A stretch of DNA of 64,000 nucleotides, taken from the NCBI RefSeq assembly GCF_058153355.1, contig NZ_CM177019.1. One strand, written 5' to 3'. Numbering within the stretch: position 1 is the stretch's first letter; every line of letters starts with the position of its first letter. Of the stretch, positions 34,613 to 42,563 are shown piece after piece. The notes under the pieces were generated by a model. That model was not told the origin of the DNA. It saw only the letters and a program-made list of their open reading frames with translations, and made no database searches. The position numbers were made by a program, and so were the translations under genes.

Positions 34613-35551
34613 TGAAACATATTCAAATCCGTAATAGTGATATGGCCTGGCATATTGCTGCCAATATTCAGTTTCCACCAAATTTTGATGAGTCAAAACA
34701 GTATCCGGCGATTATCAGCGTCCATCCTTTTGGCAGTTGTAAGGAGCAGACGTCTGGCAATATCTATGGCAAGGCATTGGCTGAAAAAGGCTATGTCGTT
34801 CTCGCTTATGACGCCAGTTTCCAGGGAGAATCTGGTGGGGAGCCTCGTTGGATAGAAGATCCGACACAGCGCGTAGAGGATATTAGCCGTGTTATCGATT
34901 ATGCAGTAACTCTGCCATATGTTGATGCTGAACGCATTGGCGTGCTGGGTGTGTGTGTGGGGGGGGGGGGGTGGCTATGCCATTAATGCCGCGCTGACAG
35001 AAAAACGAATTAAAGCTGTAGTGAGTATTACGGGTGTTAATATCGGGCGTCTTTTTCGGGAAGGTTTCAGCAATTACGATCCGATTGGCGCATTGAATGC
35101 AATGGCGTCGCAACGAACCAAAGAGGCTCGTGGTGGAGAATTACAGATCAACGAATTACTTCCCGCCAGCCTGGATGCAGCAAAAGCCCATGGACTGACC
35201 GAACGCGATGTTTATGAAGCAACTGACTACTATAAAACACCACGCGGGCAACAACCGGGAGGTGCGACAAAAATGTTGTTCTCACATGCACAGAAAACGC
35301 TGGCCTGGGATGCCTTCGCATTTACTGAAGTGTTACTGACTCAGCCGGTGATGGTAGTAGTTGGTGAAAAAGTCGGTGCCTTCGGTGCTTATCGTGATGG
35401 ACTGGAAGTCTATGGCCGGGCGATGGTTTCGCAGGATCGTCAGTTAGTTTCGTTACCCGATTTCTCACATTATGAACTGTATGACAAACCGGAAGCAGTT
35501 CAGGAGGCGCTGGAAAAAGTTATTCCTTTTTTCAACACCCATCTGGGATAA
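34612..35551 (+). pseudogene. ycjY-paralogous alpha/beta hydrolase, frameshifted at a (GT)4-G12 tract
   Basis: ORFs 34612..34986 and 34919..35551 are collinear with YcjY residue-by-residue (DAERIGVLGVCVGGG | YAINAALTEKRIKAVVSITGVNIG... versus YcjY DNTRIGAMGICAGAGYTANAAIQDRRIKAIATVSAVNIG); reading frame switches inside gtgtgtgtg + 12 G (34951..34971). Confidence 0.7.
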
Positions 35552-35556
35552 GTTTC

Positions 35557-36207
35557 ATGAGAAATATTATGAAAAAAGTACTCATTCTTGGTGCTGGCGG
35601 TCAGATAGCCCGCCATGTGATTAATCAACTGGCAGATAAACAAACCATTAAACAAACTTTATTTGCTCGTCAGCCAGCAAAAATACACAAACCCTATCCA
35701 ACTAATAGCCAGATTATTATGGGGGATGTACTGAATCATGCAGCACTGAAGCAGGCCATGCAGGGACAGGATATTGTGTATGCCAACCTTACGGGGGAAG
35801 ATTTAGATATTCAGGCAAATTCAGTGATCGCTGCGATGAAAGCCTGTGATGTTAAACGTCTGATCTTTGTTCTTTCCCTCGGCATTTATGATGAAGTTCC
35901 AGGAAAATTTGGCGAATGGAATAATGCAGTTATTGGTGAGCCCCTAAAACCATTCCGCAGGGCTGCGGATGCAATTGAGGCTTCTGGACTGGAATATACA
36001 ATTCTTCGCCCTGCCTGGCTGACTGATGAAGATATTATTGATTATGAGCTTACCTCACGCAATGAACCATTCAAAGGTACGATCGTATCACGTAAGAGTG
36101 TCGCAGCATTAATCACAGATATCATCGATAAACCTGAGAAACACATTGGTGAGAATATAGGCATCAATCAACCCGGGACTGATGGTGATAAGCCCTTCTT
36201 CATGTAA
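35557..36207 (+). CDS. NAD(P)H-binding NmrA/SDR-like protein (216 aa)
   Basis: N-terminal Rossmann motif VLILGAGGQIARHV; I recall only a fragment (ymjC) at this position in K-12. Confidence 0.7.
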   Translation: MRNIMKKVLILGAGGQIARHVINQLADKQTIKQTLFARQPAKIHKPYPTNSQIIMGDVLNHAALKQAMQGQDIVYANLTGEDLDIQANSVIAAMKACDVKRLIFVLSLGIYDEVPGKFGEWNNAVIGEPLKPFRRAADAIEASGLEYTILRPAWLTDEDIIDYELTSRNEPFKGTIVSRKSVAALITDIIDKPEKHIGENIGINQPGTDGDKPFFM

Positions 36208-36370
36208 ATCAATTATATAGCTACCATCGTACTGTACTATGTGCAGTACGATTTATTAAACTTATTAAGGTGAACTGATCAATCAGATGCGATTAACATG
36301 TGTAGAACCAGTAAGAATAAAATACGCCATGTATATAACATTACGACAATTCTAATATCTGCACATCAAT

Positions 36371-36408
36371 GAAAATACAAACAACTTCCGGCAAAAAAGT
36401 GATACAAG
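36371..36408 (+). repeat. copy B of the ~35-bp repeated intergenic element (mpaA upstream)
   Basis: GAAAATACAAACAACTTCCGGCAAAAAAGTGATACAAG; about 90% identical to 32375..32411. Confidence 0.6.
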
Positions 36409-38284: not shown

Positions 38285-38788
38285 ATGTCACAAACCGTTC
38301 ATTTCCAGGGCAACCCGGTTACAGTAGCCAATTCCATCCCGCTGGCGGGTAGCAAAGCGCAGACTTTTACTCTCGTGGCAAAAGATCTGTCTGACGTCAC
38401 CCTCGGTCAGTTTGCGGGTAAACGCAAAGTGCTGAACATTTTCCCGAGTATTGATACCGGTGTTTGCGCCGCATCAGTACGTAAGTTTAACCAACTGGCA
38501 ACTGAGATCGACAACACCGTTGTGCTGTGTATCTCTGCCGATCTGCCGTTCGCCCAGTCTCGTTTCTGCGGCGCAGAAGGTCTGAACAACGTTATCACCC
38601 TCTCCACTTTCCGTAACGCTGAATTCCTGCAAGCCTACGGTGTGGCAATTGCTGATGGCCCACTGAAAGGTCTGGCAGCGCGTGCCGTTGTGGTTATCGA
38701 TGAAAATGACAATGTGATTTTCAGCCAGCTGGTTGATGAAATCACCACCGAGCCGGATTACGAAGCAGCTCTTGCTGTACTGCGCTAA
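38285..38788 (+). CDS. tpx: thiol peroxidase Tpx (167 aa)
   Basis: atypical 2-Cys peroxiredoxin with peroxidatic Cys in [10 protein letters not shown]. Confidence 0.95.
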
Positions 38789-38795
38789 ACAACTG

Positions 38796-38835
38796 TGCCG
38801 TTCACTGAATCACCACCGGTGAACGGCAGTTTTTG
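38796..38835 (+). terminator. rho-independent terminator of tpx
   Basis: tgccgttcac-(13 nt loop)-gtgaacggca followed by gttttt. Confidence 0.7.
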
Positions 38836-38929
38836 ATCTACCAATCCCACTATTTTCCAGAGTTCCTGCCACTATTCCCCCTAACCGTTGTGCATTAAGA
38901 TTGTTCTTTGCCATTATTAGCCCAGCGGA

Positions 38930-40984
38930 GTGATGACTATTATGGATGATAAACAAATTACGGTCTGGCTTAAACACAATTGCTGTTCAACGGACATTCC
39001 TGCCATTGCCGAGGCACTAACGAACCATGCAGAATGGCTTTTAGAGCTAGCGCCAGATCCTATTGAACAAGGTAGTTCATGTTTACCGCCGACAGCTGCA
39101 GCCGGTATTTTTCTTGGCGCAGCGGCGATGGTTCACTGCGGCGAGGCTAGTGGTGCAGAAACCTGGCTCGAAGCAGCCATTACTGATTACCATTTCTTTA
39201 ATCCAAATGGATATAGTTCATGGAGAGGCAGTACGCCTGTTTTTACAGCATTATCGCGTTACCCGGCATTAAGAATGGTGTTATTTAACGCCGCTTGCGC
39301 AATGGAAGACTGGAATAAAGCATCCGCTGTTCTTGAATCGCTTTTCCATGCCGGCGATGTCCCGGAAGATAACCCTGTCGCCCCAAATTTTACCCCTTAT
39401 GCGCTGAAAGCGTTTATCGCGGATTACCACCCGTTAGGGCCTGCTTATTATGATGAAACCTGGTTGCTGGCAAAACAAGCGTGGTTAATTAATGCGGGCG
39501 TTCTGGATGAGCGAACCTGTAATACCTGGAAGCAATATACCCGCCACTTGCGCCATTTGATCCACAATACACAGTTTGCCGATGCGCTCTCTTTTGTACG
39601 CAGTAAAAAAGAACCGTTAAATCATATCCATACCTACTCAGACTTTTATCTGTATGCGATTGGTTTATTTTCTTATACTAGTCAGCTAAATGAAGCGCTG
39701 ACCTGGATAAAACAGTTAATCCACAACAATGATGGTCATTTCTGTGATCTTTTCGTTTCAACTGGCAAAGAGCGCCGAATAAAGCCTGAACTTAGTACCT
39801 TGCTGAATAATCTCTTGCACAGCGCAGAGTTTCAGGCGTTGCAGGATAAATATCTCACCGTCGGACATGATGTTGTGTATTCTGGTCCCTTCATGTCACT
39901 TTATGAAAAGGTTCTTGGCGGTAAGTCCCGAAAGCGCTGCGCGATTAGTCGAAAATTAATCTCGCCCGGCGAAGCGGTTTATGAATATCGTCAGCTGGAT
40001 AGTGTGGAATATATTGCAGCAAAAGCGGCCTTTCAGACATCTGAGCTAAATAATATCGCCCACCGGCATCATAATGATAGTTATCAGTGGCATGAATTTG
40101 CTGCCCAATGGCCTCGTCGGGGTTCACTTTCTCACCCAGATATTGCCCGTTATTTGTTTGAGCGCCAGGAAGGAAAATGCTTTGATGCCGCAGAGTTTAT
40201 ACAACTGATTGCGGAACCGTTTGTCTTTCCGATGCGTTTCATATGGGTTGCCGGGTTGTCCTTTGAATTACATCAGTATCCGGATGCCTATTTCGTAAAT
40301 GACAATATGGCGGGTGAATTTGTTAATCTCTGCTGGATGGCTATGAAATGCGGACATGCTGGAGACATTTTCAAACAACTGGCCCACGAGCCGCATGACG
40401 TTGCTGACCCTATTTACGCCATGCTCGCCACGTTTGACCGCGCTGATTGCCGTAGCGCCGCCGCCGCGCACTTTGGACAACCGGAACTACCGGAAATAAT
40501 GGCACTGGCTTTCAGTTCGAGGTTATCGCTGGACAGCGTCCTTACCATCGCTGAGTTTGGTAAAAATCAGCCGCGATTTTCACATGCGCTAGCAACGGCC
40601 CTCCTGCGTTACAACCTGCACATCTACTCAAACTATATGCCGCAGGTTAACTGGTTCCTTCAGGGGCTGGAACACTATGCTTTGGCAAAAGGCGGTCAAC
40701 TTTTAAATTTCTTTGTGCATATTCCAGAACAAATTCCCGTTCTGGCGACCATGCTGGAACATGGCGTATTAGTGCGTGGGATCGGTGAAGGTGCCTACGA
40801 TGGTTATGATAATTCAGCAAATTCATTTCATCATGCCGCCGTGATGCACTGCCTCACGCACGCGCCGGAAAAAGTCCGCTACTGGATGGAAACACCCTGG
40901 ATTCAGAACTATTTAGTGAATGCGCCGCTGCGTCAAACGGCGCGCCATGTGGAAGCCTGGCATAAAAAGTTTGGCATCAAATGA
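38930..40984 (+). CDS. uncharacterised 684-aa soluble protein (no recognisable domain)
   Basis: single long ORF with GGAG SD before the second ATG; no Walker A, HTH, DDE or TM signature; Cys/His/Trp/Tyr-rich; lies between tpx and tyrR. Confidence 0.7.
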   Translation: MMTIMDDKQITVWLKHNCCSTDIPAIAEALTNHAEWLLELAPDPIEQGSSCLPPTAAAGIFLGAAAMVHCGEASGAETWLEAAITDYHFFNPNGYSSWRGSTPVFTALSRYPALRMVLFNAACAMEDWNKASAVLESLFHAGDVPEDNPVAPNFTPYALKAFIADYHPLGPAYYDETWLLAKQAWLINAGVLDERTCNTWKQYTRHLRHLIHNTQFADALSFVRSKKEPLNHIHTYSDFYLYAIGLFSYTSQLNEALTWIKQLIHNNDGHFCDLFVSTGKERRIKPELSTLLNNLLHSAEFQALQDKYLTVGHDVVYSGPFMSLYEKVLGGKSRKRCAISRKLISPGEAVYEYRQLDSVEYIAAKAAFQTSELNNIAHRHHNDSYQWHEFAAQWPRRGSLSHPDIARYLFERQEGKCFDAAEFIQLIAEPFVFPMRFIWVAGLSFELHQYPDAYFVNDNMAGEFVNLCWMAMKCGHAGDIFKQLAHEPHDVADPIYAMLATFDRADCRSAAAAHFGQPELPEIMALAFSSRLSLDSVLTIAEFGKNQPRFSHALATALLRYNLHIYSNYMPQVNWFLQGLEHYALAKGGQLLNFFVHIPEQIPVLATMLEHGVLVRGIGEGAYDGYDNSANSFHHAAVMHCLTHAPEKVRYWMETPWIQNYLVNAPLRQTARHVEAWHKKFGIK

Positions 40985-40992
40985 ACGTTGCC

Positions 40993-41013
40993 GCTGCGCC
41001 TGAACGGCGCAGC
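40993..41013. terminator. hairpin between the 684-aa ORF and tyrR stop (no T-run)
   Basis: gctgcgcc-tgaac-ggcgcagc. Confidence 0.3.
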
Positions 41014-41021
41014 CAGCACAA

Positions 41022-42563
41022 TCACTCTTCGCTTTTCTTCTGGTTTAAGCCATATTCCCGCAACTTATTGGCAATCGCGGTATGCGAAACGCCGAGACGT
41101 TTTGCCAGTTTGCGCGTGCTGGGATAATTGCGATAAAGCTGAGTTAATACCGAGCGTTCAAAACGGCTGGTAATTTCGTCCAGCGAACCTTCCATCGCAT
41201 CTTCGCCCACGGCTACCGTTGCGGCGTCATAATCCGGCAACAAAATATCCTGAGGACGCAGCTCATAGCCGTCCAGTTGTGTCAGTGCGCGATAGATAGC
41301 GTTCTTTAACTGCCGCACATTTCCCGGCCACGCATAACGCGTAAGTACAGTATTCAGGTCAGCGGCCAGTTTCGGACGCGGCACGCCCTGCTCGTCGGCA
41401 AAGCGAGCGACGAACAGTTCAGTTAACGGCATGATGTCCTGCGGACAGTCACGTAACGGCGGCAGATTGAGCGTCAACACGTTCAGACGATAATAGAGAT
41501 CTTCACGGAACACGCCTTTTTGCACCAGTTCGACCAAATTCTTCTGCGTAGCGCAAATAACCCTTACATCGACATGCACTTCATGATCTTCACCAACTCG
41601 ACGGAAAGTACCATCATTAAGGAAACGCAGTAATTTCGCCTGCATCCTTGGCGACATCTCGCCTATCTCATCTAACAGCACCGAACCACCGTTCGCCTGC
41701 TCAAAGAACCCTTTTTTACCTTCCGGAGCATGACCAAACAGTTCACTCTCGACCGCATCTTCCGGTATAGACGCGCAGTTCAGCGCCAGGTAAGGTTTGC
41801 CCGCTCGTGGGCTTGCCTGATGGCAGGCGTAGGCAAAGAGATCTTTACCTGTACCGGTGTCACCCGTAATCAGCAACGGCGCGCTTAGCATCGCCAGTTT
41901 CTGCGCCTGTTCGACAACATGCTTCATTTTCGGGCTGACGGCGACAATTTGACTGAAGGCACTGACGTCCTGTGCAGCGACATTCTGCAACTGACGGCCC
42001 ATACGAATCGTCGAGCGCAACATCACCACCGCACCGGTCAGAACGTGTTGATCATTTTCATCCTGAAGATAAACAGGCGTAATCTCCATCAGGAAATTCT
42101 GCCCATTAATAACGACATGCTCGTTATGCGAGTCTTGCGGTTCGCTTTCCAGCCAGCGTAAAAAATTAAAGCCGTTAATTAATTGCGCGGCGGTATGGTT
42201 GCGCAGGCGATCCAATTTTTGCCCAAAAAGCTGACAGCTCGCCGGGTTCGCCATATCCACTTTGCTTTTCATATCAACAGAAAGCACAGGTTCAGGCAAC
42301 GCCTCCAGTAACGCGCTCAACGCCAGATGCTCACGTTCGGAAGGCATCCACGGGACAGTACGCACATCGGTAACACCTGCAATACGGCGTATTTCGGCCA
42401 TCAGACTGCTGAAGCTCTCAAACTCCAGTTCAGCAAAATTGAGGTAGATTCGCCCAATGGGGTCAATCTCAATACCGCGTAAATCAATGCCTCTCAGCAC
42501 CAGTAAATCGAGTAATTCGCGGGTCAGACCAAGTCGGTCTTCACAAAAGACTTCCAGACGCAT
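41022..42563 (-). CDS. tyrR: tyrosine repressor TyrR (513 aa from MRLEVFCEDRLG)
   Basis: ACT/PAS N-terminus, AAA+ domain with GDTGTGKD, C-terminal HTH; lacks the GAFTGA loop, as expected for TyrR. Confidence 0.95.
   Translation of the reverse strand: MRLEVFCEDRLGLTRELLDLLVLRGIDLRGIEIDPIGRIYLNFAELEFESFSSLMAEIRRIAGVTDVRTVPWMPSEREHLALSALLEALPEPVLSVDMKSKVDMANPASCQLFGQKLDRLRNHTAAQLINGFNFLRWLESEPQDSHNEHVVINGQNFLMEITPVYLQDENDQHVLTGAVVMLRSTIRMGRQLQNVAAQDVSAFSQIVAVSPKMKHVVEQAQKLAMLSAPLLITGDTGTGKDLFAYACHQASPRAGKPYLALNCASIPEDAVESELFGHAPEGKKGFFEQANGGSVLLDEIGEMSPRMQAKLLRFLNDGTFRRVGEDHEVHVDVRVICATQKNLVELVQKGVFREDLYYRLNVLTLNLPPLRDCPQDIMPLTELFVARFADEQGVPRPKLAADLNTVLTRYAWPGNVRQLKNAIYRALTQLDGYELRPQDILLPDYDAATVAVGEDAMEGSLDEITSRFERSVLTQLYRNYPSTRKLAKRLGVSHTAIANKLREYGLNQKKSEE

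Follow-up and report, generated by a model that had tools for sequence, protein, structure and literature searches.

Why do tpx and tyrR, which are adjacent in nearly every Escherichia coli chromosome, stand more than two kilobases apart in a few strains, and what might the gene between them do? We addressed this question for a 64,000-nt stretch of contig NZ_CM177019.1 from RefSeq assembly GCF_058153355.1 (hereafter, the window), in which an accessory segment of 2,239 bp (38783–41021, + strand) separates the gene for thiol peroxidase from that for TyrR. The segment carries a single gene, coding for a protein of 680 amino acids (aa). Our tentative answer is that this protein is of the orphan immunity type and would bind a toxin delivered by competing bacteria.

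The 680-aa protein and its family

The single gene of the segment lies in an intact open reading frame (ORF) on the + strand, at 38930–40984. An earlier reading of the window, made from the letters alone (the sequence-only reading), had described it as a 684-aa gene; the ORF is indeed present, but translation probably starts at the ATG at 38942, four codons past the GTG at 38930, as judged from comparison with other copies. This ATG is the start in the eight closest homologues and in the RefSeq/PGAP annotation of other E. coli copies; the coding sequence then spans 38942–40984 (+ strand) and the product is 680 aa long. The GGAG previously proposed as its ribosome-binding site is found at 38927–38930, a Shine-Dalgarno-like element 11 nt upstream of the ATG. 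A scan of 38837–38941 yielded no convincing sigma-70 promoter.

The protein has a mass of 77 kDa and an isoelectric point of 6.1. As had been noticed in the sequence, it is rich in Cys (1.9%), His (5.3%), Trp (2.5%) and Tyr (4.6%), each at ∼1.6–2 times the window background, and its gene is more AT-rich than the flanks, with a GC content of 47.3% (45.5% at third codon positions) against 51–54% in tpx, tyrR and ycjG. It contains no hydrophobic segment of 19 residues, and hence no transmembrane helix, and has no signal peptide; the protein is thus predicted to be cytoplasmic. An identical sequence is present at NCBI (EGO8351536.1, "hypothetical protein [Escherichia coli]"), and its RefSeq name is likewise "hypothetical protein".

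The sequence-only reading could assign no motif, and database searches added no family: the protein had no match in Pfam even at E≤10, none in NCBIfam or PHROGs, and none in PADLOC-DB v2 at E≤1. A word-indexed search of 5.8 billion proteins retrieved eight clusters only, 50–91% identical, their sources being E. coli, Salmonella and enterobacterial metagenomes. When 1.84 billion representatives were searched exhaustively with a profile, 120 proteins came up at E≤1e-3, 48 of which were at E≤1e-30; the members are mostly 480–720 aa long. Relatives were found in 7 of the 100,044 GTDB species representatives scanned with a 22-sequence alignment, and all seven carriers are Alphaproteobacteria (Rhizobiaceae, Azorhizobium, Reyranella and Methylobacterium). 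Foldseek searches against AFDB50 added further relatives, all uncharacterised, in Bacteroidota, Desulfovibrio, Listeria, Leptospira, Planctomycetota and a spirochaete. No homologue was present among 50,697 phage records, and the only plasmid homologue was rhizobial. The GC content of the homologues follows that of the host, from 45 to 71%.

Two remote relatives in the AlphaFold database are titled DUF4034 (PF13226; 24–27% identity, template modelling score ∼0.76–0.79). This assignment was rejected: neither the window protein nor any of 52 family members matches the Pfam entry, and alignment with hhalign to a bona fide Salmonella DUF4034 protein gave a probability of 0.05%. Literature searches on DUF4034 and on the protein accessions found nothing. 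Judged by sequence, the gene belongs to no described protein family, DUF4034 and all Pfam Imm families included.

The conserved part of the family comprises the C-terminal ∼360 residues. Variation is greatest in the N-terminal repeat region: the first 160–190 residues are missing from short members, and in two members ankyrin repeats, the only Pfam matches among the 52 sequences, stand in for it. When ten remote members were compared with PADLOC, the matches were the ankyrin repeats of two proteins and a weak DpdE match (E 3e-4) in the N-terminal stretch of a third, all outside the conserved core. In a 993-aa relative from a soil metagenome (locus L045, 4138–7119) the core is preceded by ∼620 residues without a Pfam match, which suggests, from sequence, a third type of N-terminal module besides tetratricopeptide repeats (TPR) and ankyrin repeats (Ank).

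An AlphaFold2 model built from the 52-sequence alignment describes a single body, with a mean predicted local distance difference test score (pLDDT) of 89 and a predicted template modelling score of 0.90; a model from nine sequences was poor (pLDDT 61) and was set aside. Three parts can be distinguished. Residues 1–305 (38942–39856, + strand) form an alpha-solenoid similar to TPR and pentatricopeptide repeats (PPR) in the model, in fold comparisons and in profile matches; this region consists of the tandem helix-turn-helix units by which a TPR solenoid is recognised from sequence or fold. A small beta-rich module follows at about residues 317–360 (39890–40021, + strand) and contains the basic motif LGGKxRKRCxISRKLIxPGE. 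The remainder, residues 361–680 (40022–40981, + strand), is a conserved helical domain with the motifs ADPIYAMLATFDR, RYNLHLYSNY and YDxYxN. Sequence searches of the Protein Data Bank (PDB) with two profiles matched TPR/PPR proteins at the N-terminus only, apart from RidL/interaptin noise at E>0.1. A fold search with the whole model likewise found no match for the C-terminal helical core among solved structures. Conserved across the wide family are C333 (45 of 52 sequences), G343, R350, P399, G471 (all 52), R504, Y557, H560 (46 of 52), Y562, W571 and W648.

Genomic company of the relatives

We inspected the neighbours of the family gene at ∼30 loci and compared 15 of these all against all. No conserved partner gene emerged from the latter comparison; therefore, the family gene is a self-contained unit. 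It does occur in tandem with its own paralogues. At one locus (L016, 3305–5415) a frameshifted copy, in pieces of 358 and 344 aa, directly precedes the intact gene for P0008, and a Salmonella contig (L035, 1932–6073) holds two intact copies, ∼50% identical to each other, followed by a gene of the TsiV (DUF3396) family.

The enterobacterial contexts are varied. The gene stands alone between tpx and tyrR in E. coli and between malM and ubiC elsewhere; between a DUF2526 gene and ydcZ there are tandem copies with or without TsiV; and an islet downstream of hrpA contains Tli4_C and an ankyrin protein, along with a faint Rhs match. In Salmonella (over 700 contigs, among others of serovars Derby and Senftenberg) the orthologue lies in an islet between yegQ, encoding a U32 peptidase, and a conserved gene of ∼700 aa, beside an orphan TsiV gene and remnants of IS1. 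At one such yegQ locus (L036, 2287–16270) the flanking genes code for two uncharacterised proteins, one of 703 aa with DUF4034 and one with DUF1266, and no family matches the 223-aa gene that lies immediately upstream of the orthologue.

Similar company is found farther afield. On a conjugative plasmid of Sinorhizobium the family gene lies among two SMI1/KNR4 (SUKH) genes, two DUF1963 genes and one DUF3396 gene, a metagenomic member belongs to an array, all on one strand, that includes SUKH_6 and DKNYY genes, and another stands beside Sel1 and TPR genes. Taken together, same-strand arrays with immunity families (TsiV, Tli4_C, SUKH/SMI1_KNR4, DUF1963, Ank) are present at 5–6 independent loci. 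A scan of metagenomes gave 16 further loci with housekeeping neighbours, and one Ank-type relative adjoins an RCC1-repeat gene. The only toxin-related hint across the inspected loci is a faint RHS_repeat match ∼3 kb downstream of the gene in locus L034. This context points to putative orphan-immunity islets of interbacterial conflict, connected with type VI secretion systems (T6SS) or polymorphic toxins, and not to phage defence.

The tpx–tyrR site in E. coli

Tpx and tyrR flanks were recovered from 5,415 of the 5,426 complete E. coli genomes surveyed. The two genes are adjacent in K-12, as stated in the sequence-only reading, and so they are in over 99% of the genomes; in K-12-type genomes they are convergent and 43 bp apart, and in the window the distance is 2,233 bp. 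The segment is, as surmised there, a compact accessory unit with one ORF; it is carried by 30 genomes, with two additional copies truncated by IS600 (∼0.6% in total). No different cargo occupies the site in any surveyed genome and, therefore, the site is not an integration hotspot.

Alignment of the filled to the empty site shows that homology stops at 38782 and resumes at the tyrR stop codon (41022–41024), which reads TGA here and TAA in K-12. The segment takes the place of the last two codons of tpx (167 aa, 38285–38788, + strand), of its stop codon and of the 43-bp spacer. Since the left junction falls after 38782, tpx ends in codons for VLR and not for the VLKA of K-12, and Tpx is one residue shorter in all carriers. 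From this altered end and from the tyrR stop (tyrR, 513 aa, 41022–42563, − strand) it follows that the junctions sit inside or at the ends of the two core genes. They are the same in both alleles of the segment found in E. coli.

These alleles are ∼98–99% and ∼93.7% identical to the window. Synonymous divergence between them is 0.15 in the gene for the 680-aa protein, compared with 0.13–0.17 in the flanking tyrR and 0.09–0.11 in the flanking ycjG of the same genomes. Because the alleles have diverged as much as their flanks, the polymorphism is an old one and the segment not a recent arrival, which renders doubtful the suggestion that it is recently acquired cargo. The ratio of nonsynonymous to synonymous substitution (dN/dS) is 0.27–0.31 over the whole gene, whereas it is 0.01–0.08 in flanking genes; it is 0.16–0.21 in the C-terminal half and 0.29–0.53 in the N-terminal half together with the beta module. 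The gene is under purifying selection and evolves faster than the surrounding core genes.

Disabling mutations have nevertheless accumulated: in E. coli, 11 of the 32 copies are defective through no fewer than three independent events, while dN/dS is ∼0.27 in the intact ones. One frameshift or stop is common to five isolates of Shiga toxin-producing E. coli and from cattle, a separate disruption occurred in a dog isolate, and IS600 insertions interrupt the gene in four genomes. Truncated forms are also common in the protein cluster to which the 680-aa protein belongs (305 members).

The non-coding ends of the segment have a structure of their own. In K-12-type genomes the 43-bp spacer is a single strong bidirectional hairpin (−28 kcal/mol). 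In the window, folding placed at 38796–38836 (+ strand) a hairpin (38796–38828; −20.6 kcal/mol, z −4.1) with a 10-bp stem, TGCCGTTCAC/GTGAACGGCA, and a 13-nt loop, followed by the T-run GTTTTTG. The terminator of tpx noted earlier is thus a real hairpin with a T-run, but this rho-independent-type terminator was brought by the inserted segment and is not that of K-12. The second predicted hairpin, ahead of the tyrR stop, is also real: it is a GC-rich structure, GCTGCGCC-TGAAC-GGCGCAGC, at 40993–41013, within the 37 bp between the end of the 680-aa gene and the tyrR stop, and lacks a T-run on both strands. No Rfam family was found within 36–44 kb of the window.

The junctions show no target-site duplication, the segment contains no gene for a transposase or integrase, and its non-coding ends have no similarity to the flanks of homologues at other loci. 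A 12-nt imperfect inverted repeat, CTGTGCCGTTCA/TGAACGGCGCAG (11 of 12 positions), is located at 38793–38804 and 41001–41012; its arms lie within 10–20 nt of the segment ends and each overlaps a hairpin. This repeat may be a relic of arrival or a chance occurrence, there being 24 inverted repeats of at least 10 nt in the same 2.6 kb. A mobile element (insertion sequence, transposon or integrative islet) was considered and rejected, as neither mobility gene nor duplication accompanies the 12-nt repeat. An exact 11-nt direct repeat, AATCACCACCG, is present at the 3′ end of tpx (38740–38750) and in the loop of the terminator hairpin (38808–38818), and is possibly a microhomology.

Other variation was seen outside the segment. 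The 38 matches to our query on E. coli plasmids are fragments of tpx with ∼93% identity, for example 249 bp on a 105-kb plasmid (NZ_AP045062.1, 57153–57401). Upstream in the window, at 34900–36400, a stretch of low GC content (37–45%) between a ycjY-like hydrolase gene and mpaA contains ORFs at 34919–35551 (210 aa) and 35557–36207 (216 aa), neither of which matches NCBIfam. This interval varies among E. coli: mppA adjoins mpaA at one locus (L002), and an SDR oxidoreductase gene is found at another (L003).

A proposed immunity role and its rivals

The reading to which we tentatively give preference is that the 680-aa protein serves as a toxin binder of the orphan immunity type. A stand-alone cytoplasmic alpha-solenoid binder would neutralise a toxin acting in the cytoplasm, delivered by competitors via T6SS, Rhs or CDI-type (contact-dependent inhibition) systems; the binding surface would be composed of the variable N-terminal repeats (TPR here, ankyrin elsewhere) and the conserved C-terminal core. 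At its one fixed position in E. coli the gene is a long-standing presence/absence polymorphism of low frequency; lineages probably pass it on when the adjacent core genes recombine homologously, and it would erode slowly wherever the matching toxin poses no threat. We favour a protective, toxin-binding role because the architecture consists of repeats throughout, the N-terminal binder is swappable, no enzyme fold is detectable and the protein is predicted to be cytoplasmic; because the gene is autonomous and patchily distributed, with diverging tandem paralogues and a high load of pseudogenes; and because TsiV, Tli4, SUKH and Ank genes are co-located with it at at least five independent loci, one of which is a published immunity-islet locus. 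The dN/dS of 0.27, against 0.01–0.08 in the flanks, and the faster evolution of the N-terminal half fit an immunity-type gene.

Several observations weigh against this reading. With its 680 aa the protein exceeds a typical immunity protein several-fold in size, and neither it nor the 52 members match Pfam Imm families or other described immunity families. In none of the ∼30 loci does a recognisable toxin gene lie directly upstream. Arrays of immunity families are absent from E. coli, where the gene is alone between core genes, as it is in one other enterobacterium, and from alphaproteobacterial chromosomes. All seven GTDB species matches and most metagenome matches are alphaproteobacterial, and in these chromosomes, as in soil metagenomes, the neighbours are only housekeeping or metabolic genes. 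The conserved Cys333 and His560, with several Arg, Tyr and Asp residues, could mark an active or ligand site, and the argument for immunity is one of guilt by association only. A role outside conflict, in which the TPR region of an ordinary cytoplasmic enzyme or scaffold would recruit a substrate or partner to an active C-terminal core and the location in islets would be incidental, is a close rival because of the missing upstream toxin, the large size, the ordinary-looking alphaproteobacterial members and the conserved Cys, His, Tyr and Arg, even if we consider it doubtful. The alphaproteobacterial neighbours (M20 peptidase, LigB, phosphoenolpyruvate mutase, periplasmic binding proteins, MinCD, a tRNA synthetase), with signs of local synteny, are in keeping with such a role, as are the agreement of GC content with the host, suggestive of long residence, the polar residues retained in the family (C333, H560, R350, R504, Y557, Y562) and purifying selection over the full length of the gene. 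However, neither sequence comparison (Pfam, NCBIfam, PDB) nor fold relates the protein to an enzyme family, and outside a single small beta module the model is made of helical repeats. Also against such a role are the extreme rarity and patchiness of the family (relatives in 7 of 100,044 species representatives), its recurrence in conflict-type islets of enterobacteria and the disruption of a third of its copies in E. coli.

Two further explanations retain conflict and change the part played in it. The sequence-only reading had thought of phage-defence or stress cargo, and in a single-gene defence system the repeats would sense a phage protein and the C-terminal domain act as the effector. A compact accessory gene of patchy distribution that combines a variable TPR or Ank 'sensor' with a constant C-terminal domain would suit that role, and one distant Ank-type relative lies ∼6 kb from a type I restriction-modification and AAA_13 cluster. 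Yet the protein matches nothing in PADLOC or PHROGs and remote members match PADLOC outside the conserved core only; there is no phage homologue and a single, rhizobial plasmid homologue; no signature of a nuclease, NTPase, TIR, SIR2, protease or membrane effector is present; no defence island surrounds the gene in E. coli, Salmonella or rhizobia; and the recurring neighbours are T6SS immunity families and not defence genes. We regard this explanation as improbable. Far less credible still is a secreted T6SS cargo effector, the protein being the toxin and the downstream Tli4_C or TsiV gene its immunity. An immunity-family gene does follow at a short distance in two islets, and many effectors are large, but the downstream family differs from locus to locus and is absent in E. 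coli and at most other loci. Moreover, no PAAR, VgrG, Hcp, MIX, FIX or adaptor gene is nearby, the protein has no toxin domain, and a solo toxin without an immunity gene is not expected to persist. The probability that remains falls to something else.

If the orphan-immunity reading is true, a large and structurally new family joins the acquired interbacterial defences of gut Enterobacteriaceae, and tpx–tyrR offers a clean natural presence/absence system, with two alleles and a number of natural knock-outs of one gene at one fixed site. Unexplained genes in the islets of the Salmonella yegQ locus would also become easier to annotate. Orphan-immunity genes that are accessory and rare already form a known category; from the model, the new element would be the C-terminal core, ∼360 residues without a match among solved structures. 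That this core is a new domain which, with TPR or ankyrin modules, makes up a single-gene protective system, either a large class-wide immunity protein or a Cys/His-dependent sensor-effector for phages or toxins, we think unlikely. Should the protein have no part in immunity, it would be one of many accessory hypothetical genes of E. coli, present in fewer than 1% of genomes, often decaying and of limited significance.

Repeat proteins are reportedly no strangers to toxin immunity: TPR, ankyrin, Sel1 and HEAT repeat proteins are said to have been described by Zhang and colleagues in 2012 as immunity or binding proteins in polymorphic-toxin loci. The 680-aa protein resembles these in its TPR/PPR-like N-terminal 300 residues, in the ankyrin repeats of other members and in its Ank and Sel1 neighbours, and differs from them in that the conserved part is a C-terminal domain of ∼360 residues and not the repeat module. 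A second comparison is with TsiV/DUF3396 (PF11876), experimentally validated immunity proteins of VRR-Nuc T6SS effectors, which are often duplicated (Hespanhol et al. 2022; PMC9635880). Both families are cytoplasmic and occur in duplicated or tandem copies, and they are co-located at three loci; however, they are unrelated by sequence or Pfam, and TsiV is ∼310 aa long with a defined upstream toxin, which the 680-aa protein lacks. The closest parallel is provided by the orphan immunity islets of Salmonella. SAIDI-1 and the often degraded 'Paratyphi C islet', both at the yegQ locus, have been interpreted as orphan T6SS/CDI immunity genes set in arrays (Barretto & Fowler 2020; PMC7400221); the same work cites the AID clusters of Bacteroidales as orphan immunity islets. 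The E. coli gene differs in being alone and outside any array, and its family is neither named nor analysed in that work. A possible relative is SPC1576 of S. Paratyphi C RKS4594, a 'TPR' gene that lies downstream of an Rhs-core gene; if it does belong to the family, the C-terminal domain of that Rhs protein would be a candidate for the cognate toxin. It shares with these islets a patchy distribution and a high load of pseudogenes, as reported in PMC7400221, and its 56%-identical Salmonella orthologue resides in an islet at the very same yegQ locus.

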